From Patescibacteria group bacterium (GTDB lineage: Bacteria; Patescibacteriota; Patescibacteriia; Patescibacteriales; JAQVLT01), in the NCBI GenBank assembly GCA_028704015.1, contig JAQVLT010000003.1:36997-100996 (forward strand): DNA of 64,000 bases, written 5' to 3'. The position numbers were made by a program, and so were the translations under genes. Within the stretch, counting starts at the first letter, position 1. Each line of letters begins with the position of its first letter. This document shows, in pieces, positions 1,757 through 60,689 of the stretch. The notes below the pieces were generated by a model that was not told the origin of the DNA, made no database searches, and saw only the letters and a list, made by a program, of their open reading frames with translations.

Positions 1757-1779
1757 AAATCCCCTATTTTGGGGATTTT
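1757..1779 (+). terminator. hairpin AAATCCCC-TATTTT-GGGGATTT followed by a T-run
   Basis: Read directly. Lies downstream of the AKR gene and overlaps the last codons of comEC on the other strand. Confidence 0.45.
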
Positions 1780-5346: not shown

Positions 5347-5703
5347 TTATCTGATTATTAATCTTTTTAACATGCCATTGCGCAATCTATTAGCCGGAAG
5401 CATTTGTTTTACCGCTCGCATCAATATATCTCCCGGATTTTTTTCTTTTAGATCTTTCATTTTAGTGACTCTAATTCCTCCCGGATAACCTGAATAACGA
5501 TAATATTTTTTCTGTTCAAGTTTCTTGCCGGTAAACTTTAATTTACTAATGTTTGCAACTTCAACAATGTCTCCTGCGTCAATATTGGGAGTATATTCCG
5601 GTTTATTTTTGCCACGTAAAATTATTGCGATTTGAGATGCTAATCTTCCGACCGCCTTATCTGTCGCATCAATTTTTTGTAATTTTCTTTCAACCTTTTT
5701 CAT
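5347..5703 (-). CDS. rplM: 50S ribosomal protein L13
   Basis: KAVGRLASQIAIILRGKNKPEYTPNIDAGD matches the L13 N-terminal core. Only 118 aa, which is short. Confidence 0.9.
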   Translation of the reverse strand: MKKVERKLQKIDATDKAVGRLASQIAIILRGKNKPEYTPNIDAGDIVEVANISKLKFTGKKLEQKKYYRYSGYPGGIRVTKMKDLKEKNPGDILMRAVKQMLPANRLRNGMLKRLIIR

Positions 5704-5739
5704 ATTTGTAGATTTGAATATTATTTGTAGATTTGAGTG

Positions 5740-6090
5740 CTATACTAATTCTAATTGCACCACTTCGGCACCATCGCCTTTTCTATCACCCAATTTAATA
5801 ATTCTGGTATAGCCGCCTTTTTTGTCTTTATATTTAGCTCCTAAAACTTCCATGGCTTTTTTTATCGCCATTTTCTGCGGTAAAATCTGAATTAATTGGC
5901 GTCTGGCAGATAAGTCTCCTTTTTTGGCAATCGTAATAATTTTTTCTACCAACGGCTTAACTGCTTTTGCCTTTGCGGATGTAGTTTTTACTTTTTCGTA
6001 AATTAAAACGCTTGACGCCAAATTTCTCAGCATCAATTCCCTCGGTGCTTTTTTTCTGTCTAAAATTACTCCTTTATTTCCATGTCTCAT
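5740..6090 (-). CDS. rplQ: 50S ribosomal protein L17
   Basis: MRHGNKGVILDRKKAPR...GGYTRIIKLGDRKGDGA...LELV. Confidence 0.92.
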   Translation of the reverse strand: MRHGNKGVILDRKKAPRELMLRNLASSVLIYEKVKTTSAKAKAVKPLVEKIITIAKKGDLSARRQLIQILPQKMAIKKAMEVLGAKYKDKKGGYTRIIKLGDRKGDGAEVVQLELV

Positions 6091-6107
6091 ATGTATAATT
6101 TTTTATT

Positions 6108-6929
6108 TTAAGATTTCTTTGGGCGACCGCGCCTTTTCTTTTCTGTAGTAAGTTCCTCGGAAACCGACTCAGCATCCTCCTCGATAGATTCCTCTTCAAC
6201 TTTTTCTTCTTCAATATTTTGCGCTTTTTTTTCAACTTCCTCGCCCAACAAAGCGTTAAATTGGTTAATTAATATTTGCGCTGAATCTTCAAAAGCTTTT
6301 TGCGGAGTAATAGTGCCGTCAGTCACAATGTCCAATATCAACTTGTCCCAATTGGTCATTTTGCCGACGCGCATGCTATCTACTGAGATACCGACAGAAA
6401 CAACCGGAGAAAAAATTGAATCCATATCAATATGACCGATCTCATGCTTTTTTTCTTCTATACTTTCTATTGAGCGATAACCGCGTCCACGGCTCACATA
6501 GATTTCCATATTCAAACTGCCGGCCATGTCAGTAATATGCGCCAAAATTAAATCCGGATTAACAATTTCTACTTCGCTATTTTTAGTAATATCGCCCGCT
6601 TTTACTTCTTTCGCGCCATGCGCATTTAATTCTAATTTTATTTCTTCGTCGCTTTCAGAAAATATTTTTAAGCGCAATTGTTTCAAATTTAAAATAATAT
6701 CTAAAACATCTTCTTTGACGTGCGGCAAAGACATAAACTCATGATCAACTCCCTTTATCTTAACGCTCACTACCGCGGCGCCAGGCAAAGAAGAAAGCAA
6801 CACCCGCCTCAAAGAATTACCCAGAGTTGTGCCATAACCAGGATAGCACGGTTCAACCGTAACAATCCCCTGATTAGCACTTTCTCCGGCTTTAAATTCT
6901 ATTTTTTTAGGCAAAACGATGTCGTTCAT
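6108..6929 (-). CDS. rpoA: RNA polymerase alpha subunit: NTD only, with an acidic tail and AT-hook
   Basis: NTD motifs GNSLRRVLLSSLPGAAV. The ORF track starts at 6959, but ATG at 6929 (MNDIVLPKKIEF) matches the usual N-terminus. C-terminus is EE-rich and ends KKRRGRPKKS. Confidence 0.9.
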   Translation of the reverse strand: MNDIVLPKKIEFKAGESANQGIVTVEPCYPGYGTTLGNSLRRVLLSSLPGAAVVSVKIKGVDHEFMSLPHVKEDVLDIILNLKQLRLKIFSESDEEIKLELNAHGAKEVKAGDITKNSEVEIVNPDLILAHITDMAGSLNMEIYVSRGRGYRSIESIEEKKHEIGHIDMDSIFSPVVSVGISVDSMRVGKMTNWDKLILDIVTDGTITPQKAFEDSAQILINQFNALLGEEVEKKAQNIEEEKVEEESIEEDAESVSEELTTEKKRRGRPKKS

Positions 6930-12997: not shown

Positions 12998-13027
12998 AAA
13001 AATTAAAATTATAAAATTTTTATTAAA

Positions 13028-15649
13028 CTATTTTTCTATTACCATCGCGTAATATTTATCTACATTCAAAACGTCTTCAATGTGCCAGCCGTTTTCACTG
13101 ACTTTTGAACTAACCGGATATTTCCAGACGGCGCGCAAATTTGCCGGCAAAAATAAATTGGAAATAATCTTATCGCCAATTGATCCTGGTTGTTTTTGAA
13201 CAAATAACGAATAAGGCAATAAACTTTTCTGGTCGGGATTTAACAAATTTTCTATTTTTCCGAACCAACCCGCATCATCCCGAGGAGCTTCTTTGATTGT
13301 AAATGGTAATTTGTATTTGAGCACAACTGTTTTTATTTCTCCCGGCTCAAGCATAAACCAATTGGCAAAAACTGTTTTTCCATTCTCATTGTAAATTTTT
13401 GTTTTATTTTCTTCGTCAATTCGCGCTAAATTTTCCGTCTGAGCAATAAAAGGATCAACGCTCAATGATTCTTCTGGCTGTTTAGCGATATATTCTTTTT
13501 CATCCAGCTCGCTAAAACCCTCAGCGGATAAAAGTTCGCTCCCAGCCGGCACATAAACTCTCATCCAATCTAAATTTCGCACGCCGGTGAACAAATCTCC
13601 GCGGCTGGCATTGTGTTTTCTTGTAATCACCACGGTGTCAATAATGCTTCCATCATCGGCTATTTCCGCTTGGTGATTTATTGTTTCGTCAATCACTTTG
13701 TCGCTTTTCTGCCCGTAAATATTGGTATTAACAACTGATAAATAATCCCATTTGTTTTCTTCCATTTTTCCATCCCAACCGCGTTGGGCGATTTCTTTTT
13801 CCAATTTTTCATCAGTAAAATAAAATAAAATATGTTTTTCATTCAAATTGCCTTCTATTGCTTTTAAAATTTCAACGAATTTGTCCTTGTTATTGATTCT
13901 CTTTGGCAATTCAACGAGAATAGCATCCATTAAATCGCGGATAATTTCCTTGGGTTTAGCTTTGTCAACCTCAACTTTTCCGGAGGTGGAATCTTTTAAT
14001 TTGTCCAATTCTTCTTCACTTAAATTTCCCGCTTCAACTATTTTCTGAGTAGTATCCCAAAAATTATCCGCGTCAATCACCACGCCATATTTGGCCGTCA
14101 TATCAATCGGGCCGAGTACTCTTAAAATTCTCTCTAATACTGTCGGGGTAAAACTGATCACACCATCAACGGTCGGGCCATCGCTTTTTTCATAAAACCA
14201 TTTCAGCTTCTCCGCGCTGGTCGGCCAATCAGGCCACCAATTCGCATTCCAAAAAAACCAGCGCGTCCCAATAAGCCAAAATGGTTCGGGCGCCAAAACT
14301 GATTCTCTAAGCCCGGCCGTAGTGTCATAACTCCCGCCAGCCGGAGCTTCAATATTTTTTATTTTTCCATTTTGAAAATCTACGAGCGCGTAACTGCCGA
14401 CAAAACCGCCCGAACCGCGCATTTCGGAATTATTTTGAAAAACTAACAAATAACGTTTATTGCCGGCAACACCTAAAAATTCTTTGAGCTTTTCAGAAAT
14501 CAAAATAAAATCTCCCAAGCCGGCTTCCAGATCGGCTGATTTATTTCTCAAAAAAATAAACTGCTCTCTGTATTCAATGGGTAAAACATCAATATCAATC
14601 TGCGATAAATGACTATTCAAACTCGCGGCCGCTTCACGTGATTTTTCTCCATATAAAACAAAATTATCTAAAATTTTTGCCATGTCTTTCTCGCCACCTG
14701 AAAATAAACTTTGCAAAGCTAAACTCATATTTTCACCCAAAATGGCGGCATTCTCGCCGGCGGCGAGCATTTCTCGACTATAAGCGGCCAAACGCGCTTC
14801 GTCGCTAGGCGCATAAGCTGCTAATCTAAAAAGCAAACTGTTTATTTCTCCAAGCTCTTTTTCAGCTGAAAAAAATTTCTCACTTGCTTCGGAAAAATTG
14901 TTTGAAGCTTTATTAAAATCCAGATTCATCACGTCTTTGGAGCCATTAATAAAACTGGAAAAACCCGCTTCGGAAGCTAACACGACTTTATTTTTTAAGT
15001 CGCTTAAATTTATAGTTTTATAAAAATCTAAAAATTTAAAAGGCAAAATGATGATGAGCAGAAGTAAAGCGAATTTGAAAATTCCCTTGAAGGAATGTTT
15101 TTTATTGTCATTCTGATCCCGCTCTAGCGGGAGAAGAATCTCGGGTTTATCTATAAATTTCTTTGATTTAGCTTTTGCGTTTAGTATTGTCTCTCGCGCT
15201 TTCTGAGATCCCTGCCTGCCGGCAGGCAGGCTTCGTCCTCTGTTTGCGACCAGAGGATTCAGGATGACAATCGCTTTTTTTATCATTTTCCCCACCCACT
15301 TAACCAAAAATACCGGCGCAAAAATAACGCCATAAAAAAAATATTTTAAATAAACAAAAATATTCCTGCAAAAAATTTTTATTCCGGAAAAAACCCGGGA
15401 AACTTTTTCGACTAAAATTTTGAATAAACCAAAAAACTTTTTAAATAAAACAAAAATAATAAATATCTTGGCAAAAAACTTGAAAACGTTAATAAATATT
15501 TCTTTAAAATCAACATGAACTTTTGAACTATTTTTATGTTTTGATGCTTTAATGTTCTCGCGCGGTTTCAAATCCACAACAAATCTAGACGCTCGATCAT
15601 TTGCGCCAATATTAAAACTGCTAGATTGTTTATCTTTTCCGACAAGCAT
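13028..15649 (-). CDS. DUF4012-like large membrane-anchored protein
   Basis: 873 aa. RYLLVFQNNSEMRGSGGFVGSYA resembles the DUF4012 core. Contains the 168-nt element at 15104-15271. Confidence 0.65.
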   Translation of the reverse strand: MLVGKDKQSSSFNIGANDRASRFVVDLKPRENIKASKHKNSSKVHVDFKEIFINVFKFFAKIFIIFVLFKKFFGLFKILVEKVSRVFSGIKIFCRNIFVYLKYFFYGVIFAPVFLVKWVGKMIKKAIVILNPLVANRGRSLPAGRQGSQKARETILNAKAKSKKFIDKPEILLPLERDQNDNKKHSFKGIFKFALLLLIIILPFKFLDFYKTINLSDLKNKVVLASEAGFSSFINGSKDVMNLDFNKASNNFSEASEKFFSAEKELGEINSLLFRLAAYAPSDEARLAAYSREMLAAGENAAILGENMSLALQSLFSGGEKDMAKILDNFVLYGEKSREAAASLNSHLSQIDIDVLPIEYREQFIFLRNKSADLEAGLGDFILISEKLKEFLGVAGNKRYLLVFQNNSEMRGSGGFVGSYALVDFQNGKIKNIEAPAGGSYDTTAGLRESVLAPEPFWLIGTRWFFWNANWWPDWPTSAEKLKWFYEKSDGPTVDGVISFTPTVLERILRVLGPIDMTAKYGVVIDADNFWDTTQKIVEAGNLSEEELDKLKDSTSGKVEVDKAKPKEIIRDLMDAILVELPKRINNKDKFVEILKAIEGNLNEKHILFYFTDEKLEKEIAQRGWDGKMEENKWDYLSVVNTNIYGQKSDKVIDETINHQAEIADDGSIIDTVVITRKHNASRGDLFTGVRNLDWMRVYVPAGSELLSAEGFSELDEKEYIAKQPEESLSVDPFIAQTENLARIDEENKTKIYNENGKTVFANWFMLEPGEIKTVVLKYKLPFTIKEAPRDDAGWFGKIENLLNPDQKSLLPYSLFVQKQPGSIGDKIISNLFLPANLRAVWKYPVSSKVSENGWHIEDVLNVDKYYAMVIEK
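15104..15271. mobile_element. 168-nt MITE-like element inserted in frame
   Basis: TIRs ATTGTCATTCTGA and TCAGGATGACAAT (12/13 match). Internal GATCCCTGCCTGCCGGCAGGCAGG at 15207-15230. Same architecture as 18263-18420. Confidence 0.65.
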
Positions 15650-15792: not shown

Positions 15793-17070
15793 CTAAAGAG
15801 ACAAAGAGTCTCCGGTCATGGGCGCATAAGCTTCGCACCCAAGCTCGCGCGCCAGGCAAACCACTGCCTGACAAGCTTGCGGACTGCCATGCTGGGCAAT
15901 GACAATCCGAGGTTTGACCATCTGAATCGCTTGGCGGATGGCCGCGGCATCGGAATGAGCGGAGAAGCTTAGCTTCTCAACGTGGCAGCCCAATCTGACG
16001 CGTTCTCCACCAACGGAAATATTGCCAGTTTTCAGAAGATCTCTCCCTCTTGTGTCCTCTGCCTGATAACCGGCCAAAATAAGGAGATTCTTCGGATCAG
16101 GACCTTTTACTCGGATGTATTCCATGATAGGACCGCCCTCAAGCATGCCGCTCGTGGCGACAAATACACCTTGCGAAATTAGGTGTATCTGGCGATCCCA
16201 TTGGGAAATCCGCCTGACGGAGTAAAGCGCTTGGCGAAGTGCTTCGGGATCCCGAAGATATTCCGAATGCGCGAGAAATACATCCGTCACATTATTCCCC
16301 ATGCCATCCAAATGCACCGGGCAAGAGAGGCCCATCTCGGCAAGGAGAAGGAGAATCTCTTGCGTCCTCGCCAGCGCGAAGGCGGCGATCATCACTGAAC
16401 CGCCACCAGCGATTGTCTCGGCAACCAGAGACTTAAATCTCTCTTCAACCGCAGTCCTGTCAGGATGCGACCTGTCCCCATAAGTCGCATCAATGATAAG
16501 AATCTCCGCATGCGGAAGACGCTCGCATTTTTTCACGAGGCGAGTATCCATGCTATTAAAATCGCCGGTATAAAGCAATGACCTCCTACCTTGCTTCAGA
16601 ATGATACTGACTGAGCCGGGAATATGGCCAGCCGGGAAAAACTGATAGTGGACATTGCCGCGACGACCCTTTTCTTTGTACCGCATGAGCGACAGTACTC
16701 TCTCAATGTCGCTCTCATTATATCGCGGCTCTTGCTTCTTCTTCGCCGCAATTTTCAGAGAGTCATAGAGAAGAAGCTCTGCCGCTTCTTTGGTGATCGG
16801 CGTACAGAAGACGGGGCAATTCAGCCCATCTTTTGCCAGTTCAGCCAAGCCGCCAACATGGTCAAGATGCCCATGAGAAATCGCCGCGAAGCTGATTTTC
16901 TCCAGCCGCGTGATTTTTTCGGGCCAAGCCATAATTTTGGTTCCGCCTATGTTCGCGGGTTTGAGTCCATAATCAAGAAGGATCCGAGACCCATCAGGAA
17001 ATACTGCTTCGATGCAGCTTCTCCCAACTTCGGATCCTGCACCGTGCATTGTTATCCCGATGTTTCCCAT
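15793..17070 (-). CDS. MBL-fold beta-CASP family hydrolase (RNA/DNA-processing nuclease type)
   Basis: HGHLDHVGG motif and C-terminal FSAHSDAAAI...AQHGSP (beta-CASP motifs B/C). GC-rich. The ORF track begins at GTG 17079; ATG 17070 follows GGAGA. Confidence 0.8.
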   Translation of the reverse strand: MGNIGITMHGAGSEVGRSCIEAVFPDGSRILLDYGLKPANIGGTKIMAWPEKITRLEKISFAAISHGHLDHVGGLAELAKDGLNCPVFCTPITKEAAELLLYDSLKIAAKKKQEPRYNESDIERVLSLMRYKEKGRRGNVHYQFFPAGHIPGSVSIILKQGRRSLLYTGDFNSMDTRLVKKCERLPHAEILIIDATYGDRSHPDRTAVEERFKSLVAETIAGGGSVMIAAFALARTQEILLLLAEMGLSCPVHLDGMGNNVTDVFLAHSEYLRDPEALRQALYSVRRISQWDRQIHLISQGVFVATSGMLEGGPIMEYIRVKGPDPKNLLILAGYQAEDTRGRDLLKTGNISVGGERVRLGCHVEKLSFSAHSDAAAIRQAIQMVKPRIVIAQHGSPQACQAVVCLARELGCEAYAPMTGDSLSL

Positions 17071-17131
17071 ATTGACCACATCTCCTCTCGCTTTGATTTT
17101 TAGCTAAAAAGAACAACTTTACAGATTATGA

Positions 17132-17160
17132 ATATTATCAATTAAAAATAACCCTGTCAA
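17132..17160 (-). promoter_or_regulatory. sigma70-type promoter for the MBL gene
   Basis: Minus strand reads TTGACA, 17-nt spacer, TAATAT. Confidence 0.45.
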
Positions 17161-17213
17161 CTTCAAAATATTATTTAAAATTAGCAAAAATTAATAGTTT
17201 CTTAATAAAAACG

Positions 17214-17242
17214 TTGACAAAATAATTAAGATATGTTATTAT
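17214..17242 (+). promoter_or_regulatory. sigma70-type promoter
   Basis: TTGACA (17214-17219), 17-nt spacer, TATTAT (17237-17242). Confidence 0.45.
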
Positions 17243-17272
17243 TTTATGTTAATTGTTCTTTGAAAGACGTTT

Positions 17273-17330
17273 AGTTCTTGCCGGTTTTGTTGCTAAAATT
17301 TAGCGCTAAAACCGGCAAGAACTGTTTTTT
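17273..17330 (+). terminator. leader terminator/attenuator hairpin
   Basis: Perfect 16-bp stem AGTTCTTGCCGGTTTT / AAAACCGGCAAGAACT, 19-nt loop, then GTTTTTT. Sits between the promoter and the ATG at 17392. Confidence 0.5.
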
Positions 17331-17391
17331 GTTTTCAATTTTACGCGCTTTTCGCGCGCACCCATTCACACACCACAAAGGAGGAAGCACC

Positions 17392-18096
17392 ATGACGGAA
17401 GAGCGATATGACCATATTATGGTAAGCCTCAGGGCAAACCGGAACATGGTGGAGAGGGGGCGAAAGTTGGGTCTCCCCTACGTATTCCGGACAAAGCAAC
17501 AGCAGAAAGAGCTAACCGCGCTGTATGCGGCGAAAGCGGGTGAGGCCAAGGCGTTCCGGCTGGAGCGCGAGGACACCGCCGGCAATCCCCAGGCTGACGG
17601 TGGCAACCTCGTCTTCGGACGGAATGGCCAGGAGAACATCCATCTCTGGTCCCTCTTGGACGACTTGTCCAAGGCCGGCTACGGTCTGACCATCGCCGAG
17701 GTCTTCCAGAAGGAGAGCGACAGTAACGGCGTTGGTTTCATCAGGTTTGTTTTTACCCACGACAAAGCCGTTGTGATGCCGACCTTCTTCGAGGTCAGCG
17801 AAGAACAAGAGCGCTTTATGACTCTTCTCTTCAAACGCCTTTACCGGAAGGTGCACGGTTTCCGAAACAACGCGGCGGTCTCGCTCGAGGGCGAACAAAA
17901 CCCGATCCAGGGGCCCATCATCACGCTCAACGTGGCCGGCCCAGTCACGGAAGCGCGTGAACTCGAAGAGCGGCGCCCTTATCGCCGCGACCTGCGGCTC
18001 CTGGACGAGCTCGGGCATTTCCGGTGCCCGCTCCACGACTCCCAGGCCCACGCTCTGGCCAAGAAGCAGAAGGCCTCCGTCCAGGCCCCCGCCTGA
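17392..18096 (+). CDS. hypothetical protein (GC-rich, no recognisable domain)
   Basis: The ORF track starts at 17278, but ATG 17392 is preceded by AAAGGAGGAAGCACC. 234 aa. Confidence 0.55.
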   Translation: MTEERYDHIMVSLRANRNMVERGRKLGLPYVFRTKQQQKELTALYAAKAGEAKAFRLEREDTAGNPQADGGNLVFGRNGQENIHLWSLLDDLSKAGYGLTIAEVFQKESDSNGVGFIRFVFTHDKAVVMPTFFEVSEEQERFMTLLFKRLYRKVHGFRNNAAVSLEGEQNPIQGPIITLNVAGPVTEARELEERRPYRRDLRLLDELGHFRCPLHDSQAHALAKKQKASVQAPA

Positions 18097-18262
18097 CCCC
18101 ACCCTCGTTCTTTATCTTCCGACCCAATCGGGTCATATCTGGCCCCCGGCAAGAACAACACAAAAAATCGTGTTCGTTTCTTCCGGGGGTCTTGTCTTTT
18201 TAAAAATAAAAATCCCCGAAAGGTGGGGTCAAAAAATAAATTTGAGAGCCGAAAAATCTCTA

Positions 18263-22553: not shown

Positions 22554-22590
22554 TATTATTTAAAAATTACAAAATTAAAAATTAAAAATT
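22554..22590. repeat. right arm of a perfect 37-bp inverted repeat
   Basis: TATTATTTAAAAATTACAAAATTAAAAATTAAAAATT. Confidence 0.85.
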
Positions 22591-23349
22591 CTACAAGGCT
22601 ATTATTTCCTTCGCCAACTTCTCATACGCTCTGCCGCCGCGCGAAGACGGATCATAATGGAGAATAGAACGACCATAGCTTGGAGCTTCAGCTAATTTAA
22701 CACTGCGGGGAATAATAGTGCGGAAAATTCGATTAGGAAAATATTGGTAAAGCTCATTCATAACCGCGCCGGAAAGCCGATTGCGATTATCATACATCGT
22801 AATCACCGCGCCCATTATACCAAGTTCCGGTTTTAAATTTCCTTGCACGAGTCCAATCGTTTCCAAAAGCTGGCTTAATCCTTCCAGCGCGTAATATTCG
22901 CTCTGAATGGGAATCAAAACTTCGTCAGCGGCTACCAAGCTATTTACCGTGAGCAAACCAAGCGATGGCGGCCCGTCAATGATAATAAAATCATAATCAT
23001 CGCGCACGCTATTAATAATTTTTGCCAAGCGATATTCACGTTCTTCCATGCCAACTAATTCAATGCCGGCGCCCGCCAAAGAAAGAGTTGCCGGCGCCAC
23101 ATCAAAACCAACCTGCATGGTTTTTTTAAGCACCTCAAACATTGTTTTTTGTCCGATTAAAGCCTCGTAAATGCCATGTTCCAGACTACGATGATCTACG
23201 CCAAGACCACTTGTAGCATTGGCCTGCGGATCAATATCCACGAGCAAAACCTGCTTTCCTAAATACGCCAAATACGCGCCCAAATTCACCGCGGTAGTTG
23301 TTTTTCCTACTCCGCCTTTTTGATTTACGATAGAAATTATTTTACCCAT
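22591..23349 (-). CDS. parA: ParA/Soj partition ATPase
   Basis: Deviant Walker A NQKGGVGKTTTAVNLGA. Confidence 0.92.
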   Translation of the reverse strand: MGKIISIVNQKGGVGKTTTAVNLGAYLAYLGKQVLLVDIDPQANATSGLGVDHRSLEHGIYEALIGQKTMFEVLKKTMQVGFDVAPATLSLAGAGIELVGMEEREYRLAKIINSVRDDYDFIIIDGPPSLGLLTVNSLVAADEVLIPIQSEYYALEGLSQLLETIGLVQGNLKPELGIMGAVITMYDNRNRLSGAVMNELYQYFPNRIFRTIIPRSVKLAEAPSYGRSILHYDPSSRGGRAYEKLAKEIIAL

Positions 23350-23549
23350 AGAAATCAGTAAAATAGTAAACAGTAATTAGTAAATAATAATTTATCTACC
23401 ATTTACTAATTACTGTCTGTTATTTACTAAATATTATACCCCACTTTTTTTCCTTTGACAATTTAGAAAAAATAATTTATATTATTTATATAAAAACAGT
23501 GTCCATATTCACTGTATTTTTAATTAGAAATCAAACAAAATTAATTTTA

Positions 23550-23633
23550 GCCGAAGTGGCGAAACTGGTAGACGCGCACGACTCAAAATCGTGTGGAAGC
23601 AATTCCATGAGAGTTCGATTCTCTCCTTCGGCA
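23550..23633 (+). tRNA. tRNA-Leu(CAA), type II with a long variable arm
   Basis: Hand-folded. Acceptor GCCGAAG/CTTCGGC, anticodon stem CACGA/TCGTG with loop CTCAAAA, T-arm GAGAG-TTCGATT-CTCTC. No encoded CCA. Confidence 0.9.
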
Positions 23634-23708
23634 CAAATAATTTTTGATTTTCGATTTTTGAATAATGTTTACTTAAAAAATCTAAAATCGTAAATCAAAA
23701 ATTACTAA

Positions 23709-23780
23709 GGACGCTTAGCTCAGCTGGTTACCCGCCCGTACCGAACGCGGTACGTTCGGGCGGGGAGCGCCTCGTTTACA
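23709..23780 (+). pseudogene. tRNA-Val 5' half (nt 1-37) disrupted by a 34-nt GC palindrome in the D-loop
   Basis: GGACGCTTAGCTCAGCTGGTTA [CCCGCCCGTACCGAACGCGGTACGTTCGGGCGGG] GAGCGCCTCGTTTACA. Apart from the insert it is identical to 24027-24064. Confidence 0.75.
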
Positions 23781-23794
23781 ACTAATAATTTAAT

Positions 23795-24049
23795 ATGTAC
23801 ACAGTGTATATTTTAAAAGATGAAAATGGAAATTTGTATAAAGGCATGACAAGTGATATAAAACGAAGATTAAATGAACATCGGCGAGGAAAAACACAAA
23901 CTACTAGAAGAATGAAAAATATCAAATTAGTTTATCAAGAAGAGCTGGCTACATTTGATGCTGCACGCAAAAGAGAATTATATTTGAAAACTGCCGCTGG
24001 AAGAAAATTTATAAAAGAAAAATTAAGGACGCTTAGCTCAGCTGGTTAG
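23795..24049 (+). CDS. small GIY-YIG nuclease family protein (UPF0213/YhbQ-like)
   Basis: 84 aa. YTVYILKDENGNLYKGMTSDIKRRLNEHRRGK... The last 7-8 codons and the stop lie inside tRNA-Val. Confidence 0.85.
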   Translation: MYTVYILKDENGNLYKGMTSDIKRRLNEHRRGKTQTTRRMKNIKLVYQEELATFDAARKRELYLKTAAGRKFIKEKLRTLSSAG

Positions 24050-24103
24050 AGCGCCTCGTTTACACCGAGGAGGTCGAGGGTTCGATCCCTTCAGCGTCCA
24101 CCA
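24027..24103 (+). tRNA. tRNA-Val(TAC), CCA encoded
   Basis: Hand-folded. GGACGCT/AGCGTCC acceptor, D-arm GCTC..GAGC, anticodon stem CCTCG/CGAGG with loop TTTACAC, T-loop TTCGATC, then ACCA. Confidence 0.92.
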
Positions 24104-24107
24104 AAAA

Positions 24108-24134
24108 AGCTAAACCAAGGGGGTTTAGCTTTTT
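24108..24134 (+). terminator. hairpin AGCTAAACC-AAGGG-GGTTTAGCT plus TTTT
   Basis: Read directly, immediately 3' of tRNA-Val. Confidence 0.55.
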
Positions 24135-24185
24135 GTTCTTTTGTAACCTGGTAAAAACCAAAACAAGACAAGGAAGGAGTTCGCC

Positions 24186-25805
24186 ATGAAGAATGAAAAA
24201 AAACCGGAAAAGGTTGCCTTGTTGAGCGTTTTCAACAAGGACGGGATTGTGGAGTTTGCTCGCACCCTCAAGAACATGGGCTGGAAACTTCTTGCTTCCG
24301 GGGGCACGGCGCAGACGCTCAAAAACGCCGGGCTGGAAGTCAAGGATGTCGCGGACCTGGTCGGCGGCGGCGCTATTCTTGGACACCGCGTGGTCACGCT
24401 CTCACGGGAAATCCACGCCGGCCTTTTGGCGCGTGACATCCCTGAGGACAACGCGGAGCTGGACCGGCTGGGGATCCCGCGCATCGATCTTCTTTGCTCG
24501 GATCTCTACCCGCTTGAGCTGGCCATTGCCGCAGGTAAAACCATGCCCGAGGTCATTGAGATGACCGACATCGGCGGACCCACGCTGATCCGTTCGGCGG
24601 CAAAAGGCCGCCGTATTGTCATCTGCAACCCAAGGGACCGCATGGTTGTTCTCGGCTGGATGACCAGCGGCGAGCTGGACAAGGAAAGCTTCTTAAACAT
24701 GCTTGCCGCCAAAGCCGAAATGACCGTCGCCCGCTACGCACTATCTTCGGCGCGTTTCATCAGCGGCGGCGAGTTCGACGGTTTCCTCGGCCAACGCTAT
24801 CTTGAATGCCTATACGGGGAAAACGCCCCGCAGACTCCGGCCGGCGTCTTTAGCGCCCGTACAAGCGACCTGCTGGCGCTGGACAAACTCCGGCTCTTGA
24901 CCGAAACGTCGTCAAGCTACAACAATACGTGCGACCATGACCGGCTGCTCCAGACAATCACGCACATCGCCGCCGGCTTTGACCTCAACTTCGGCGAAGT
25001 GCCATATATCGCCGTGGCGGTCAAACACGGCAATCCCTGCGGCGTTGGCGTTGGAAAGACGCCGGAAGAAGCTCTCAAGAAGATGATTGACGGCGATCTT
25101 CGCGCCATTCTCGGCGGCATCGTCATGACCAACTTCCTGATAGACGAGACGGCCGCGAAAATCCTGGCCGTCTACCAGGTGCCCGTAAGGAAAAGGCGCT
25201 TGCTGGACGGGATTATCTGCCCGGTCATCACAGATAAGGCCGTTGCGATGCTCGAACGGAAAAAAGCCAAATGCCGGATTCTCATGAACCCTGCTCTAGC
25301 GGAACTGAACGAGAAATCACTGGACACGGCTCCCCGCCTTCGCTGCGTCCGCGGCGGATTTATGGTTCAGCCGAACTACACTTTCATTCTGGATCTGAAC
25401 CACCCGGAAATGAAAAAGTTCGGCCAGGCCACGCCTGAACAGAAACGCGCTATGGTGCTTGCCTGGGCTATCGCAGCCACGGCCAACAGCAACACCATCG
25501 CGCTTGTGAAGGACGGCATGCTTGTCGGCCTGGGATCTGGCCAGCAAGACCGTGTCGGCGCTTGCAAGGTGGCCTGTTTCCGAGCTGACGAATCCGGCCA
25601 TGACATCTTTGGGGCGATTGCGGCAAGCGATAGCTTCTTCCCCTTTGATGATGGCCCGCGCGCCCTTGCCGACAGGGGCGTCAAGGTGATCTTTTCTACC
25701 TCTGGCTCGATCAACGACCAAGCGGTCATTGACTTCTGCCAGGAAAACGGCATCGTGCTCTACATGCTTCCGGACAAGGTGGCCAGGGGTTTCTTCGGCC
25801 ACTAA
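24186..25805 (+). CDS. purH: bifunctional AICAR transformylase / IMP cyclohydrolase
   Basis: 539 aa. MGS-like N-terminus ALLSVFNKDGIVEFARTL..LASGGTAQTL and AICARFT domain. SD GGAGT upstream. GC-rich. Confidence 0.9.
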   Translation: MKNEKKPEKVALLSVFNKDGIVEFARTLKNMGWKLLASGGTAQTLKNAGLEVKDVADLVGGGAILGHRVVTLSREIHAGLLARDIPEDNAELDRLGIPRIDLLCSDLYPLELAIAAGKTMPEVIEMTDIGGPTLIRSAAKGRRIVICNPRDRMVVLGWMTSGELDKESFLNMLAAKAEMTVARYALSSARFISGGEFDGFLGQRYLECLYGENAPQTPAGVFSARTSDLLALDKLRLLTETSSSYNNTCDHDRLLQTITHIAAGFDLNFGEVPYIAVAVKHGNPCGVGVGKTPEEALKKMIDGDLRAILGGIVMTNFLIDETAAKILAVYQVPVRKRRLLDGIICPVITDKAVAMLERKKAKCRILMNPALAELNEKSLDTAPRLRCVRGGFMVQPNYTFILDLNHPEMKKFGQATPEQKRAMVLAWAIAATANSNTIALVKDGMLVGLGSGQQDRVGACKVACFRADESGHDIFGAIAASDSFFPFDDGPRALADRGVKVIFSTSGSINDQAVIDFCQENGIVLYMLPDKVARGFFGH

Positions 25806-25829
25806 TCAAAATTCTTTTAATCCTCCAGC

Positions 25830-25876
25830 AGGACTTTCAAAGTTTCTTACGAGAAACTACGAAAGTCCTTTTTTTC
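25830..25876 (+). terminator. hairpin AGGACTTTC...GAAAGTCCT plus T7
   Basis: Read directly after purH. Confidence 0.6.
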
Positions 25877-26024
25877 TTGCTTTTTTCTTAAAATTTATCT
25901 AATATAAAGTTAGAAAGGAGGGCCAATCTTATCGTAAGATTCGGCTCTTTTTGCACCTTGAAAAAATCGATTTTGAAAACCGTAGAGATAAACTGACAAC
26001 CCCTCAACGGAAAGGACTGATGCA

Positions 26025-27509
26025 ATGGACGAACGGTATACCATAGAAAAAATTACGAAAATCTGGTCGACTGAGAACAAGCTCAGTCTCTGGCAAAAAA
26101 CCGAACTCATGGCAATCAAAGCCAGGGTGATTCTCGGCCTTGTCGCCGAGACGATTTTCCTGAAGATCGAGGAAACGCTCAAGCGAATCCCGATTGACAT
26201 CCCGTGGTGGAAAAACCGCGACAAAGAGATCCGCCACGACCTTAACGCCTTTCTCGATGAGAGACTCCGTCACCTGACCGAGGAATTACAGCGCTACCTG
26301 CACGAGGACATGACCTCCTACGATACGGAGGAACCGGCTTTTGTGTGCATGCTCAGGGAGTCAGTGCAGATTGTCATCAGGAGTCTGGAAGAAGTCTGCA
26401 AAACTCTGAAAGCAATGGCACTCAAATACCGCTACACAATCATGAACGCCAGAACCCACGGACAGGAAGCCAAGCTGCAAAGCTTTGGTAAAAGATGCCT
26501 TACCTGGTACGTGATTTTGCAATTAGACCTCAACAACCTGAAGAATACGGTCAGTTCTCTCAAGTATGCCAAGCTTTCCGGCGCTGCCGGGAACTACGGC
26601 GACATGGATCCGGCGGTGGAGATCGAAACTCTGAAACAGCTTGGATTCGAACCGCTCTACGGCACACCCCAGATCCTTCCCCGCGAGCTTTTTGCTCCAC
26701 TGGCGCAAGCGCTCTGCCAGATCGTGCAGTCGTTGGACAAAATCGCGACCGATATTAGATTAGGCGCGCGTAGTGGACGGCCGATCTTGCAAGAGCCGTT
26801 CGGAAAAAAGCAAAAGGGCTCTTCCGCCATGCCGCATAAAAAAAACACCATCCGCACCGAGCAGATGGAAGGCATGGCGCGCATGGCGCGCGGCTACATG
26901 AATATGATCCTGGAAGCGATCAAAACCTGGGAAGAACGGGCTATTGAACAATCCTGCGTGGAAAGAGTGGCCTGGCCTGATCTCTTCCATGTGGTCGTTC
27001 ATTCACTGAAAACCATGAACGCAGTACTAACCGGCCTAACCGTTTATCCCGACAATATGCTTCTGGAAATCGCTGATTCCTGCGGAACTTACGCTTCGGA
27101 AGAAGCAAAAAAGCTTCTCCGGGAATTCCTGGCGGAACGCGGATTGTCAAGCGAAGTGGCCTACCGTATCGTGCAACTCGCCGCCTTCAATGCTCTGGAA
27201 CTTAGCGGCGGTTTCCAAAGATTGCGTGATGGCATTCCTTCAACGATAGAAGAAGCGGAAGTGGCGTTAAAGGAAGCTTCTAGTTTGGATCGACCAAGGA
27301 GAGAAAGCATCCAGGACATCATCCCTTTAGGCCATTTGCGCCACTCACCCCAACTCGAAGCTACCGAGAAAGAAATCGAGGGATGGAACGTGATGCTGTT
27401 CACCATCTTCTCGAGTCGCAGAATTCGCGATCGCTGGAACCAAATCTTCCGGCCGTCATACCAGCTAAGACGCGAACCTTTTCTCTACGAAAAGATACTT
27501 GGAAAATAA
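26025..27509 (+). CDS. purB: adenylosuccinate lyase
   Basis: Fumarate-lyase signature GSSAMPHKKNT. N-terminus RYTIEKITKIWSTENK. Confidence 0.9.
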   Translation: MDERYTIEKITKIWSTENKLSLWQKTELMAIKARVILGLVAETIFLKIEETLKRIPIDIPWWKNRDKEIRHDLNAFLDERLRHLTEELQRYLHEDMTSYDTEEPAFVCMLRESVQIVIRSLEEVCKTLKAMALKYRYTIMNARTHGQEAKLQSFGKRCLTWYVILQLDLNNLKNTVSSLKYAKLSGAAGNYGDMDPAVEIETLKQLGFEPLYGTPQILPRELFAPLAQALCQIVQSLDKIATDIRLGARSGRPILQEPFGKKQKGSSAMPHKKNTIRTEQMEGMARMARGYMNMILEAIKTWEERAIEQSCVERVAWPDLFHVVVHSLKTMNAVLTGLTVYPDNMLLEIADSCGTYASEEAKKLLREFLAERGLSSEVAYRIVQLAAFNALELSGGFQRLRDGIPSTIEEAEVALKEASSLDRPRRESIQDIIPLGHLRHSPQLEATEKEIEGWNVMLFTIFSSRRIRDRWNQIFRPSYQLRREPFLYEKILGK

Positions 27510-27535
27510 CCCCCCCCACCGAAAGGAGACCGCCC

Positions 27536-28093
27536 ATGAATCCTAAATTTGTACCGCAAGTCGTAATCATCGCCGGAAGCGACACGGATCTCAAAGCGAT
27601 TGAAGATGCCGGTATGTTGAAGGCCTTCCAGGAAATGAGCATAACCTACGCTCTTTCCTTTCTCTCCGCACACCGCCATCCTGATGATCTGAAGAACTAT
27701 TTACTCGCCATGGAAAAGGAAGGTACTCTAGTTTTCATCGGGATCGCCGGCATGTCCGCTGCTCTTCCTGGAGATATGTCAGCAATTCTCAAAAACAAAC
27801 GTCCTGTCATCGGAGTTCCTTTGATCGCACCCGACGGATTCAGCGGTCTGGATGCTCTTTTCTCCATGATCCGTTTGCCAGCAAGCACTGCCGTGGCCGT
27901 CCCGGGAATCGGCAAAGCAGGACTGAAAAACGCGACGATCCTTGCTTGCCAGATTCTTGGAGTAGAGCGGCCCGAAACACAGGTCGCTTTGAACAACTAC
28001 CTCACGAAAAAAGCGGCCAAAAAGCCACCCCAACCCGACTTCGAAATTTTTAACGGGAAAACCGTTCACCACCAACATAAAGGAGGAGCATAA
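27536..28093 (+). CDS. purE: PurE (AIR carboxylase / N5-CAIR mutase family)
   Basis: VVIIAGSDTDL, SAHRHPDD, AGMSAALPG, PVIGVPL. The ORF track starts at 27383, but ATG 27536 follows GAAAGGAGA. Confidence 0.85.
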   Translation: MNPKFVPQVVIIAGSDTDLKAIEDAGMLKAFQEMSITYALSFLSAHRHPDDLKNYLLAMEKEGTLVFIGIAGMSAALPGDMSAILKNKRPVIGVPLIAPDGFSGLDALFSMIRLPASTAVAVPGIGKAGLKNATILACQILGVERPETQVALNNYLTKKAAKKPPQPDFEIFNGKTVHHQHKGGA

Positions 28094-28096
28094 CCC

Positions 28097-28987
28097 ATGA
28101 TCCAGCCCCTGTTCGAAACCAACTTTCCCGGCCTTCCCGTTCCTCGTCGCGGCAAAGTCCGCGACATCTATGACCTAGGTGATTTTCTGCTCATGGTCGC
28201 CACTGACCGGCTATCAGCTTTCGACGTGGTCATGAAGGACCCGATCCCAGGTAAAGGCATTACCCTCACGCAGATGACCTTGTTCTGGCTGGAAATGTTC
28301 GCAGATATGGTGTTGAACCACTTGGTTACGGCTGATCCCGCCCAGTACCCGGACATCTGCAAACCCTACGCCGACATTCTTGTCGGCCGCAGCATGCTGG
28401 TCAAAAAATGTGCGCCCCTGCCAGTGGAATGCATCGTCCGCGGCTACCTTAGCGGTTCCGGCTGGAATGATTACAAAAAGACCGGATGCGTCTGCGGCAT
28501 CCAGCTTCCGCCCGGCCTTCTGGAATCGGCGCAGCTTCCTGAACCGATTTTCACGCCTTCTACCAAGGCTGAGCAGGGCAAGCACGACGAGAACATTTTG
28601 TTTGAACAAGCAGTAAAACTACTCAGCCGCGAGACCGCAGAAAAAATCCAAAAACTCTCACTCGCGCTCTACCAACGGGCCGCGGCTCATGCCCGCAGAC
28701 GCGGCATCATCATAGCGGACACGAAATTCGAGTTCGGGCTTGATAAAGACGGCAACATCGTGCTGATAGACGAGGTTCTCACCTCGGATTCATCCAGGTT
28801 TTGGCCCGCCGCCCAATACGAACCCGGACATGGCCAGCCGAGCTTTGACAAACAAGGCGTCCGCGACTTTCTGGTTAAGATCGGCTGGGACAAAAAGCCG
28901 CCTGCACCCAAACTCCCGATCGGCGTCATCGCCGAGACGCGCGAGAAGTACCTGAAGGCTCTCCGCCTCCTCACCGGCCAATTCTAA
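28097..28987 (+). CDS. purC: SAICAR synthetase
   Basis: GKVRDIYD, LIDEVLTSDSSRFW. Confidence 0.92.
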   Translation: MIQPLFETNFPGLPVPRRGKVRDIYDLGDFLLMVATDRLSAFDVVMKDPIPGKGITLTQMTLFWLEMFADMVLNHLVTADPAQYPDICKPYADILVGRSMLVKKCAPLPVECIVRGYLSGSGWNDYKKTGCVCGIQLPPGLLESAQLPEPIFTPSTKAEQGKHDENILFEQAVKLLSRETAEKIQKLSLALYQRAAAHARRRGIIIADTKFEFGLDKDGNIVLIDEVLTSDSSRFWPAAQYEPGHGQPSFDKQGVRDFLVKIGWDKKPPAPKLPIGVIAETREKYLKALRLLTGQF

Positions 28988-29016
28988 CACCAACCGCTCC
29001 TTTCTTCACTTCTAAC

Positions 29017-29073
29017 CCGTGGACTTTCGCATTACTCACCATCCGAGTTCTAGCGAAATCCACGGTTTTTTTT
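29017..29073 (+). terminator. hairpin CCGTGGACTTTCGC...GCGAAATCCACGG plus T8
   Basis: Read directly. Marks the right edge of the GC-rich block. Confidence 0.6.
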
Positions 29074-29206
29074 ATTAAAAAATAGTAAACAATAATCAGT
29101 AAAAAAATTAACAGTGTAATTTTCTATTTACTAATTACTATTTACTATTCCCAAAAAATACTTATCACACGTTACGAGTTATGAGATACGCGATATGTGA
29201 TACGAG

Positions 29207-30253
29207 TTAAACGTTCTGCCCCTCCCCTTTTTTCTCAAAAATATCTTTAAGAAATACGCTAATTACCGTCGTAAAAGGAATGGACAAAACGGCGCCAACC
29301 ACGCCAGCTAATTTAAAACCGATAAGCAAAGCAATAATTATCACGATCGGATTTAGACCTACAAATTTTTGCATTAATTTTGGAATAATAATATTACTTT
29401 CCACTAAATGAATAACATAAAAAAGAATCAGAACAAATAATGCTAACATAGGTGATTGCGCGAGAGCTAAAAATATTGCGGGAATAGCTGCCAAAAAAGG
29501 CCCAAGGTAAGGAATAAATTCAATAATTCCCGCAATCAAGGCCAAAACCAAGGCATAGCGAACTCCCAATATTGATAAACCTGAAAAAGCTAAAACAAAA
29601 ATTATCAAAGATAAAATTAGCTGGCCGCGCAACCACAGGCCGATTTTTATTTGCATGCGATTGACAAGTTTCAAAATATACGGCTGATGATGCTCAGGCG
29701 CGATTGACCAAATAATTTTTTTGAGAGCGTTTTCTTCCGCCGCCATATAAAAAGTAATCACTAAAACTAAAATAAAAGAAAAAATATTGCCAAAAATTCC
29801 CGATACCGTAGAATAAACTCCGCCAGCCGTAAGTTCTAGGCTGGAACTCAAAGAATTTATCCCTGCTTTTAAATTATCTAGCAAATTATGGCTAATGGCA
29901 TAATTTTTAAACATTGAAAAAGCGGAAATAACTTTTTCAAAATAATGCGGAAAATTTTGTGCTAAATCGGTTAACTGGCGAATAATCGGCGGCACCGCCA
30001 AATAAACAATACCACCAACAAAAATTAAAACCGCTCCATAAATAAAAACAATCCCCAGGGTTCTCGGAATTTTTTTCTTCTGCATCCAATCAACCCATGG
30101 ATCAATAGCGCTTGATAAAACTAAGGCGGCAAATAAAATTGCCACGATATCACGCACCAAAAACAAAAAATAAAGCGCTAAAACAATAATAATAGTTTTG
30201 AATATTGTAGCGGAAGAAATATTTATATTGTAATCTTTTTTTTCTTCTGACAT
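29207..30253 (-). CDS. AI-2E family (PerM/UPF0118) transporter
   Basis: 348 aa, about 8 TM, C-terminal LAGVVGAVLSIP pattern. Confidence 0.8.
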   Translation of the reverse strand: MSEEKKDYNINISSATIFKTIIIVLALYFLFLVRDIVAILFAALVLSSAIDPWVDWMQKKKIPRTLGIVFIYGAVLIFVGGIVYLAVPPIIRQLTDLAQNFPHYFEKVISAFSMFKNYAISHNLLDNLKAGINSLSSSLELTAGGVYSTVSGIFGNIFSFILVLVITFYMAAEENALKKIIWSIAPEHHQPYILKLVNRMQIKIGLWLRGQLILSLIIFVLAFSGLSILGVRYALVLALIAGIIEFIPYLGPFLAAIPAIFLALAQSPMLALFVLILFYVIHLVESNIIIPKLMQKFVGLNPIVIIIALLIGFKLAGVVGAVLSIPFTTVISVFLKDIFEKKGEGQNV

Positions 30254-50101: not shown

Positions 50102-51142
50102 TTATTCTTGCCCTCTCATCGCCAAACCAATTGCTACTGCCAATCGCGGCGCTACCTCATCCAAAACCGGTTTTAAATCAATCGGACATGACACCCTTGA
50201 CCAGGGATCGCCAACAATTGTATTTAAATTGAATATTTTAGAAAAATATTCTGGAAGATTAAGTAAAATTGCCGAGCCGCCCGACAAAACAATCTTTTCC
50301 ACTTTTTCATTATGCTTGCTTTCAAACAAATTCAACATATGCTTAATTTCATTTATTATAGGGCTAATCGCTTCAATAATCGTCTGCGGAATGACCTCCT
50401 GTTTTCTCTCGCCGATACTAATACCTAAATCATATTTAAATTGTTCCGCCCTTTCCAAGCCAATATTTAAATTTTTGCTTATTGCGTTAGTAATTGTAGC
50501 GCCGCCAACATCAATACTTCTATTTAATAATGGTATGCTTTTGTTAACAATAGAAATATCAGTAGTGCTCGCACCTATTTCTACTATCATCATTGGAGTT
50601 TTATCATTACCCAAAAGAGCTCGGATCAAAGAAAAAGTTTCAGTTTCTAAACTTAATAAATTAATTTTTGCGGCCTTAAAAATCTCAATATATTTTTTGA
50701 CCAATGTTTTAGGCGCCGCCGTTAACAAAACACTCATTCCTTTTTTGTTTTGGCCGTTTTCTATTTCTTTCCAATCCAAAACCATTTCTTCCAAAGGCAT
50801 AGGAATTACTTTCTTTGCCTCCCAATTTATTGCCGAAGGTATATCTTTCTTTGCTACGCTGGCTAAATTAATTACGGATGAAAAAACAGAAAAAGTAGGC
50901 AGGGCGGCGATGGCATTTTTTGATTTAACACCAGCTTTCTCGCAAATTTTATTAATAACTTCGGCTGTATACTCAATATCTTTTTGCCAATCGCTCGCGT
51001 TTAAACCGCCGCCGGTATTCTCGCTAAAACCATACGTTGATAACCTAAGACCTCCTTTTGTTTTTTTTAATTCAACAATTTTAATTCCCACACTGCCAAT
51101 GTCTACTCCTAAATAACTTTGATTTGAAGAAAATAAACCCAT
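50102..51142 (-). CDS. pilM: type IV pilus assembly protein PilM
   Basis: Actin-like ATPase fold: LGVDIGSVGIKIVEL, VEIGASTTDISIV, IVLSGGSA. Confidence 0.85.
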   Translation of the reverse strand: MGLFSSNQSYLGVDIGSVGIKIVELKKTKGGLRLSTYGFSENTGGGLNASDWQKDIEYTAEVINKICEKAGVKSKNAIAALPTFSVFSSVINLASVAKKDIPSAINWEAKKVIPMPLEEMVLDWKEIENGQNKKGMSVLLTAAPKTLVKKYIEIFKAAKINLLSLETETFSLIRALLGNDKTPMMIVEIGASTTDISIVNKSIPLLNRSIDVGGATITNAISKNLNIGLERAEQFKYDLGISIGERKQEVIPQTIIEAISPIINEIKHMLNLFESKHNEKVEKIVLSGGSAILLNLPEYFSKIFNLNTIVGDPWSRVSCPIDLKPVLDEVAPRLAVAIGLAMRGQE

Positions 51143-60686: not shown

Positions 60687-60689
60687 AGT

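Follow-up and report, generated by a model that had tools for sequence, protein, structure and literature searches.

A set of four purine-biosynthesis genes in a Patescibacteria genome probably results from the recent lateral replacement, or re-import, of a resident pur cluster from GC-richer Patescibacteria, brought in as a mosaic of two units. The genes lie in a stretch of 64,000 nucleotides of contig JAQVLT010000003.1 (assembly GCA_028704015.1); this whole 64-kb stretch is referred to here as the window, and coordinates are those of the window unless a locus is named. Pfam and NCBIfam identify the genes as purH, purB, purE and purC, all on the + strand at 24186-28987, in agreement with an earlier reading made without database searches (the sequence-only reading), which had taken them for a horizontally acquired, GC-rich islet. 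Together with the terminators of their transcription units and the two landmarks that bound the chromosomal slot in which they lie, they are as follows.

23550-23634, + strand: tRNA-Leu(CAA) (ARAGORN, Rfam), the conserved left landmark of the slot
24186-25805, + strand: purH, 539 aa, 5-aminoimidazole-4-carboxamide ribonucleotide (AICAR) formyltransferase / inosine monophosphate (IMP) cyclohydrolase of a Patescibacteria-type clade; GC 0.58, GC at third codon positions (GC3) 0.72
25830-25876, + strand: terminator of the purH unit, an inverted repeat with a run of seven T
26025-27509, + strand: purB, 494 aa, adenylosuccinate / succinyl-AICAR (SAICAR) lyase of a Patescibacteria-type clade (Pfam Lyase_1); GC 0.51, GC3 0.61
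27536-28093, + strand: purE, 185 aa, class-I-like PurE (Pfam AIRC); GC 0.50, GC3 0.52
28097-28987, + strand: purC, 296 aa, SAICAR synthetase (Pfam SAICAR_synt); GC 0.56, GC3 0.68
29017-29073, + strand: terminator of the purB-purE-purC unit, a hairpin at 29017-29065 (fold -23.5 kcal/mol, z -6.7) with an eight-U run behind it
29207-30253, - strand: AI-2E-family transporter gene (precomputed PF01594 match), the conserved right landmark of the slot

The composition of the pur genes is foreign to the rest of the window. Taken per 1 kb, GC is 0.51-0.56 across 24001-29000 and ~0.30-0.44 in the remainder; taken per 200 nt, it goes up at ~24200 and down at ~29000, with a single dip to 0.32 at 25800-26000. 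With the pur block excluded the window has a GC of 0.365, while the four genes range from 0.50 to 0.58 (GC3 0.52-0.72, against 0.22-0.47 in the 43 other window genes that served as the host set). The counts on which the sequence-only reading had relied, 40 G+C among the 60 nt of 24361-24420 and 15 among those of 13021-13080, are exact on recount; a 60-nt line holds on average 21.9 G+C in the host (sd 6.3) and 32.2 in the islet. The two comparisons that it had proposed point the same way, the pur genes lying 5.0-7.3 standard deviations above the host mean distance in codon usage (z) and correlating with the host at only 0.25-0.33 in tetranucleotides, where the median is 0.95. The GC-rich islet is real and compositionally foreign; it is not the only one, a second GC-rich patch being present at 15793-18100. 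A high GC is not intrinsic to purH, because PurH is AT-rich in AT-rich genomes of the Candidate Phyla Radiation (CPR), with a GC3 of 0.15-0.30. The comparison of 79 loci that ruled out an intrinsic constraint gives a median excess of PurH over its flanks of +0.04 in GC, and the +0.21 of the window is the largest. High expression was likewise rejected as a source of GC-rich codons, the ribosomal protein, EF-Ts, RpoA and GAPDH genes having a GC3 of 0.28-0.41, and so was ribosomal or other structured RNA as the cause of the rise, since two tRNAs and RNase P are all that Rfam detects in the window.

The sequence-only reading had treated the pur genes as one block. There are instead two transcription units, purH and purB-purE-purC, each with its own terminator, and the nearest relatives differ from gene to gene. 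The spacer between purH and purB is 219 nt long, has a GC of 0.35 and houses the terminator of the purH unit; because this AT-rich spacer with a terminator of its own separates purH from purB, the pur block is a mosaic of at least two units. Gene relationships were compared by means of identities and neighbour-joining trees, the L-numbered relatives being metagenome loci. PurH has its nearest relative in L004 (68%), where PurB, PurE and PurC are unrelated versions (29%, no match and 40% to the window, in that order). The nearest relatives of both PurB and PurC are found in L086 (75% and 69%), a locus with AT-rich flanks and no tRNA-Leu, in which a PurE paralogue stands between these genes. The DNA homology between the window and L086 breaks exactly at the borders of purE (window 27513-28078 versus L086 2115-2676). 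In the neighbour-joining tree, PurC groups with L086, L109, L095 and L074. The PurE of the window is 40% identical to the syntenic PurE of L129 and up to 53% identical to others, and the PurB of L129 shares 66-67% with many other CPR PurBs and 62% with that of the window.

The PurE-family paralogue found between purB and purC is a very divergent one, present in L086 (2139-2693), L004 (3942-4493), L095 (9580-10101, minus strand) and L109 (11976-12548, minus strand). Its motifs are GSxSD, S-x-HRNT and AG[WM]ANHL[ST]G, and the 70s loop is followed by an insertion. It scores only 26-30 bits with TIGR01162, where the cut-off is 149.6, and 20 bits against any PurE of solved structure. Its place in L086, flanked by the closest relatives of the window purB and purC, suggests that it may carry out the same step as PurE.

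The genes are not alien to this type of organism. At 40-75% identity, the relatives of PurH, PurB and PurE are overwhelmingly Patescibacteria. The 80 best PurH relatives in species-representative genomes (49-59% identity) belong mostly to Patescibacteria of many classes, and some to Nitrospirota and Actinomycetota. The 494-aa PurB type has relatives of 54-75% in Falkowbacteria, Staskawiczbacteria, Paceibacterota and other Patescibacteria. PurE is more isolated, with a best non-self match of 53% and ~25 relatives above 45%. A phage origin was rejected because viral contigs, searched with the PurH alignment and also with PurB, yielded no relatives.

Relatives of the slot were fetched via the flanking AI-2E protein, orthologues of which (51-67% identity) occur in 33 metagenome loci. 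In the orientation of the window, the conserved frame runs from a family 4 glycosyltransferase (GT4) through ParB, a four-helix-bundle protein, ParA and tRNA-Leu(CAA) to the slot and AI-2E. The tRNA-Leu(CAA) gene adjoins parA in L095, L104, L109, L111, L113 and L129, and L004 begins inside tRNA-Leu. The empty sites to be expected of a horizontally acquired islet do exist: AI-2E, tRNA-Leu and ParA are directly adjacent in L104 and L113. Elsewhere the slot is filled in different ways (identities are to the window proteins).

Window: purH, purB, purE and purC; pur genes GC 0.50-0.58, flanks ~0.35
L129-L134: purB (same type, 62%), purE (same type, 40%) and purC (58%); pur genes GC 0.47-0.50, flanks 0.39-0.43
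L109: purC (60%), the divergent PurE paralogue, another purB type and a stand-alone IMP cyclohydrolase; pur genes GC 0.46-0.50, flanks 0.45-0.46
L095: purC (55%), the divergent PurE paralogue and another purB type; pur genes GC 0.41-0.47, flanks 0.32-0.37
L004: purH (68%), a third purB type, the divergent PurE paralogue and purC of another clade (40%); pur genes GC 0.47-0.50, flanks 0.35-0.41
L111: an unrelated 599-aa gene

The pur clusters are host-like in composition in L109 and L129 and foreign-looking in L095 and L004. The pathway was probably not new to the lineage, for relatives already hold purB-purE-purC in the slot, some with a host-like composition (L109, L129). The relatives closest by AI-2E all have pur-filled slots (L095 67%, L004 64%, L129 64%), and the empty-slot relatives are more distant (51-57%). 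The simplest reading is therefore that the family kept purB-purE-purC in the slot and that the copy in the window is a later replacement or re-import. In a different history, a slot as empty as those of L104 and L113 would have received its first pur genes in the form of a tRNA-linked islet, with nothing replaced. We consider such a first insertion unlikely, given the filled slots of the closest relatives, the membership of the window PurC in the same clade as the PurC of the family, and the lack of an integrase and of an att-like tRNA repeat at the far end. It does have in its favour that empty sites are known in relatives, that the block lies directly behind tRNA genes as similar modules do behind other tRNAs elsewhere, that its composition is wholly foreign, and that the tRNA-Val and GIY-YIG genes upstream of purH are unique to the slot of the window.

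On the reading preferred here, the slot from tRNA-Leu(CAA)/parA to AI-2E is a place where genes turn over often within one Patescibacteria family, which already held purB-purE-purC there. In the lineage of the window the resident pur genes would recently have been overwritten or re-acquired, the donors being one or more GC-richer Patescibacteria, possibly with ~50% GC or more. The upstream additions would then comprise a CPR-type purH, the tRNA-Val gene and a small GIY-YIG gene.

Several points weigh against such a recent replacement. The identities of PurB (62%) and PurC (58%) to L129 match those of the flanking proteins (ParB 62%, AI-2E 64%), and vertical descent would give the same values. 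The spacers within the pur block are AT-rich like the host. In all AT-rich relatives the pur genes are somewhat GC-richer than their flanks, the reverse being seen at no locus; this consistent excess could reflect a systematic force, for example biased gene conversion, and not repeated transfer, but it could also reflect a GC-richer donor pool. No near-identical donor was found, the best matches being 53-75%, and it is only the composition that makes the transfer look recent. All trees were built by neighbour joining, the slot contains no integrase or other recombinase, and the segment 23593-24046 is carried by the metagenome-assembled genome (MAG) alone.

The first three of these points are also those on which vertical inheritance would rest: the cluster would be native and old, and its GC would have been kept up locally, for instance through GC-biased gene conversion at a recombination hot spot or through selection acting on the pur genes. 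The synteny with L129 fits this as well. Nevertheless, vertical inheritance appears improbable to us. Since PurH has a GC3 of 0.15-0.30 in AT-rich CPR genomes, nothing keeps PurH GC-rich, and within the window even highly conserved genes, the ribosomal ones among them, do not exceed a GC3 of 0.41. Furthermore, the four genes have their nearest relatives in different genomes and contexts, purE has been swapped between types, and at a distance of 6 kb there is another, unrelated GC-rich patch whose codon usage is similar.

The pur block is a real part of the genome, a point on which the sequence-only reading had asked for proof. Independent Logan assemblies of two sequencing runs supply contigs that match the window with 0-1 mismatch.

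22561-23592: L125, a ParA contig that ends inside tRNA-Leu
24047-26629: L003, which joins tRNA-Val to purH and overlaps L001
26154-32271: L001
27406-32271: L002

The right junction (purC, terminator, AI-2E and 3 kb further) was assembled identically in the two runs, and the junction of tRNA-Val with purH is reproduced as well. An independent contig across the left junction was not found among these assemblies, and the GIY-YIG product is not on record. A misjoining of a GC-rich segment of another organism at the tRNA genes would agree with the way in which the independent contigs break there, L125 ending at 23592 and L003 starting at 24047, and with the confirmation of the intervening segment by the MAG assembly only. 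Such a chimera or contamination is very unlikely all the same, because relatives show synteny at the slot: L004, L095, L109 and L129 hold pur genes in exactly the same place, and L004 continues from tRNA-Leu into purH on one contig.

The segment to the left of purH and the right border carry the following features. The tRNA-Val gene, its terminator and the strong terminator at the end of the block are found where the sequence-only reading had put them.

23361-23425, no strand assigned: AT-rich palindrome, copy 1, between the parA start codon and the tRNA-Leu promoter; 25-nt arms, fold -20.7 kcal/mol (z -5.5)
23707-23780, + strand: 5'-half remnant of tRNA-Val, up to the anticodon, sharing direct repeats with 24027-24064; a 34-nt GC-rich hairpin is inserted in its D loop
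23795-24049, + strand: small GIY-YIG-type open reading frame (ORF) of 84 aa, the last 8 codons of which extend into tRNA-Val
24027-24103, + strand: tRNA-Val(TAC) (ARAGORN, Rfam)
24104-24134, + strand: terminator after tRNA-Val, a 13-bp stem with a T-run
29081-29149, no strand assigned: AT-rich palindrome, copy 2, an inverted repeat; fold -27.4 kcal/mol (z -7.8)

The label of the 84-aa ORF is based on 45% identity to a gene of L122 that has a precomputed PF01541 match. The tRNA-Val gene was not found in the slot of the relatives. In the window the GIY-YIG-type ORF lies between an anticodon-cut tRNA remnant and an intact copy of the same tRNA (tRNA-Val, 23707-24103), and the same arrangement occurs with tRNA-Leu in L095 (11865-12397). 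Behind the remnant come GC-rich hairpins or repeats, and the ORF stops at the first bases of the intact tRNA or within them; L121 (~1560-1850) is listed with the same architecture. In the loci collected, 3 of the 8 GIY homologues abut the 5' end of a tRNA. Judged from this arrangement, the unit looks like a nuclease-borne element that would target and restore tRNA genes. In the empty slot of L104, at ~5600-6240 and upstream of the intact copy, the 5' end of tRNA-Leu recurs as two short fragments with a hairpin-forming insert behind each; they resemble scars left by earlier events at the slot.

The two AT-rich palindromes (~65 nt, arms of ~23-25 nt, 73-89% alike) enclose the variable segment from tRNA-Leu to purC, and the pair is absent from all relatives examined. 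On the minus strand, the copy at 29081-29149 is a hairpin with a U-run directly after the AI-2E gene and can act as its terminator.

As to the route, no integrase or transposase is present within 23350-29206, and no tRNA-derived att-type direct repeat is found at the far end of the pur block. In unrelated contexts, modules with the 494-aa PurB type (in the window, purH stands at the head) come immediately after tRNA genes, as listed here.

Window 24027-24103: tRNA-Val
L025 6968-7044: tRNA-Lys
L123 8273-8347: tRNA-Arg
Slot of the family: tRNA-Leu

The window also encodes a candidate uptake apparatus, composed of ComEC, PilM, a ComF-like zinc-ribbon phosphoribosyltransferase and type IV pilus platform and ATPase genes.

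1764-3317, 50102-51142, 52627-53355 and 59481-61736: candidate uptake genes (ComEC, PilM, ComF-like, pilus platform/ATPase)

Because an integrase and a far-end repeat are lacking, modules of this PurB type stand behind tRNAs, and ComEC, ComF-like and type IV pilus genes are present in the window, DNA uptake is a plausible route, conserved tRNA sequence then serving as the anchor for recombination.

The four proteins belong to the same enzyme families, in the same order of chemistry, as the products of purE, purC, purB and purH in bacterial pur operons (IMP steps 6-10), and signatures of these enzymes are kept: SAHR in PurE, GSxxMxxKxN in PurB and KHGNPCG in PurH. Read from the sequence, the block would be a working gene set leading from carboxyaminoimidazole ribonucleotide (CAIR) to IMP. 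PurE would be a class-I-like enzyme of the N5-CAIR or aminoimidazole ribonucleotide (AIR) to CAIR step. PurC would convert CAIR, aspartate and ATP to SAICAR, PurB would turn SAICAR into AICAR and also adenylosuccinate into AMP, and PurH would lead from AICAR through formyl-AICAR (FAICAR) to IMP. In contrast to the usual bacterial operon, PurH, PurB and PurE of the window score below the NCBIfam cut-offs, and neither purK nor genes of steps 1-5 lie nearby. Unlike the canonical enzymes, PurH has an altered cyclohydrolase motif, and the C-terminal 100 aa of PurB are non-standard.

PurH combines both domains in one chain, PF02142 MGS (residues 20-133) and PF01808 AICARFT_IMPCHas (residues 144-464), and aligns over its full length with the PurH structure 4ehi in the PDB (222.7 bits). 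It is under the NCBIfam equivalog cut-offs (PRK00881, 349.6 versus 402 bits; TIGR00355, 304.5 versus 528), and this holds for the Patescibacteria-type PurH clade as such, which is below both cut-offs and the members of which are labelled 'hypothetical protein' at NCBI. The formyltransferase site KHxxPxG is retained as KHGNPCG. In the IMP cyclohydrolase motif, HRVVTLSRE replaces the canonical GRVKTLHPK, with Val in place of Lys, and is invariant in 23 clade members. The Lys of this motif has a role in ATIC.

PurB has TIGR00928 purB as its top NCBIfam match (309.1 bits; the next lyase subfamily has 132), short of the equivalog cut-off of 326.2 and spanning model positions 1-391 of 436. Its C-terminus has no match to Pfam ASL_C or ADSL_C. 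The translation contains the fumarate-lyase signature GSSAMPHKKN (the GSxxMxxKxN loop) and THGQ. PurC is above its equivalog cut-offs (PRK13961, 415.6 versus 251 bits; TIGR00081, 238.9 versus 189.9).

The ORF of purE opens at 27383, overlapping purB; its likely start is 27536, as called in the independent assembly. Motif SAHRHP is present at residues 44-49, as the sequence-only reading had stated. The active-site Arg separates class I from the human class II enzyme, which has Lys (PMC10484210). Class I chains in the PDB match PurE with 63-88 bits and class II chains (3rg8, 5c5d) with 34-36 bits, and the score with TIGR01162 is 116 bits, below the cut-off of 149.6. A class II PurE, that is, a direct AIR carboxylase with no need of PurK, was rejected on the grounds that the motif is SAHR and not SAHK and that class II structures match weakly. 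The 70s loop reads AGMSAALPG where class I has AGGAAHLPG, His being replaced by Ala; the same Ala variant occurs in proteins of Endomicrobium and Elusimicrobia (P0299, P0327) that NCBI names N5-CAIR mutase.

The sequence-only reading had noted that a class I PurE normally needs PurK. The protein is indeed class-I-like, but PurE of this kind without PurK is already documented in methanogens and other archaea, where high CO2 or non-enzymatic N5-CAIR has been given as the explanation (Brown et al. 2011, PMC3261824). Like these archaeal enzymes, the PurE of the window has Arg after the catalytic His and no adjacent purK; unlike them, it has Ala for the class I 70s-loop His (AAHLPG). No purK was found in the 64-kb window or in the related CPR clusters examined, and PurE without PurK seems to be usual in these CPR clusters and not an anomaly.

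The absence of purF, purD, purN, purL, purM and purK from the 64 kb also proved correct, none being found by Pfam among the 40 ORFs of >=150 aa outside the islet; purA and guaAB were not found among these ORFs either. The other content of the window is typical of Patescibacteria (ribosomal proteins, ComEC, ComF-like, type IV pilus genes, FeFe hydrogenase, glycosyltransferases). The half pathway thus stands within the window, but it is not extendable to the genome: the PurB type occurs beside purL, and purM-like genes occur in 7 CPR pur clusters. A Staskawiczbacteria locus, for example, combines PyrF, a PurC-PurE fusion, the 494-aa PurB type and a 1256-aa PurL. In ~80 mostly CPR loci of which only the commonest neighbour clusters were annotated, PurH has as neighbours PurB (16 loci), PurC (15), PurE (8), SHMT (8), purM-like (7) and PurA (5), as well as GuaB and GuaA; PurF, PurD, PurN and PurK were not seen among these commonest, annotated neighbours. 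A complete pathway from phosphoribosyl pyrophosphate (PRPP) to IMP was reported in 32% of 399 CPR MAGs (PMC11608272), and nothing specific was found in the literature on the lower half of the purine pathway in CPR. It is possible that the module has its metabolic role in converting AIR/AICAR-type intermediates to IMP.

In its foreign composition, its position next to tRNA genes, the existence of empty sites and the different gene versions found in one slot, the pur block resembles tRNA-linked islands and cases of xenologous in situ displacement. The block differs from such islands in that it lacks an integrase and any att-type direct repeat of the tRNA end, the AT-rich palindromes being its only flanking repeat, and in carrying a cargo of housekeeping metabolism from related organisms. 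Its place beside tRNA genes, its foreign composition and the empty sites of relatives make it an ordinary genomic islet, and the lack of mobility genes and the origin of the cargo in related organisms fit in situ xenologous displacement best. In the Micrarchaeota of the DPANN archaea, PurH and other nucleotide-synthesis genes were inferred to have been gained by transfer in lineages with reduced genomes (PMC12892359). Those are archaea and the transfer was between phyla; the donors of the window genes apparently lie within Patescibacteria, and the site already held pur genes.

The slot provides a clean example of metabolic gene turnover in ultra-small, host-dependent bacteria, the same four-step segment of a pathway being present at the same chromosomal place in different versions across relatives. 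Transfer of housekeeping genes between related organisms is by itself unsurprising; less ordinary are the divergent PurE paralogue, the altered PurH motif and the architecture of GIY-YIG and tRNA genes. It could even be imagined that the slot is a dedicated exchange site at which Patescibacteria swap self-contained AIR-to-IMP cassettes with interchangeable PurE types, the divergent paralogue included, in which swaps are triggered by GIY-YIG breaks at tRNA genes and the cassette, devoid of steps 1-5 and of PurK, turns host-derived AIR, AICAR or ribosides into IMP. We regard this as quite improbable. A more practical aspect concerns annotation. At NCBI, PurH, PurB, PurE and related proteins frequently carry names such as 'hypothetical', 'lyase family' or 'AIR carboxylase family' protein. 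Because these Patescibacteria proteins sit below curated cut-offs and are often 'hypothetical', surveys that deduce salvage dependence from annotation may undercount purine synthesis in Patescibacteria.

Two further arrangements of pur domains were encountered among the relatives. PurC-PurE fusions, with SAICAR_synt followed by AIRC, a domain order as in animal PAICS, occur in loci of Magasanikbacteria and Staskawiczbacteria (L057 13122-14414, L126 4446-5852, L127 2304-3794, L128 1052-2518). The fusion adjoins the 494-aa PurB type in L126-L128 and a large PurL in L126-L127, and L128 ends there in a truncated, unannotated gene. In L109 the pur cluster is headed by a stand-alone IMP cyclohydrolase domain of canonical type (14189-14803, minus strand, 204 aa), which matches the first 191 positions of the PurH model with 308 bits and has no formyltransferase domain nearby.

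The second GC-rich patch, at 15793-18100, lies between a DUF4012 gene and truD and has a GC of 0.52-0.58 and a GC3 of 0.54-0.73. It consists of a gene for a protein like beta-CASP metallo-beta-lactamase nucleases (428 aa, minus strand) and a 272-aa ORF without a match in Pfam or NCBIfam. Its codon usage is like that of the pur block, with a Leu TTA share of 0.01-0.04 against 0.37 in the host. At the equivalent position, L129 and L133 carry a different GC-rich gene, of 163 aa.

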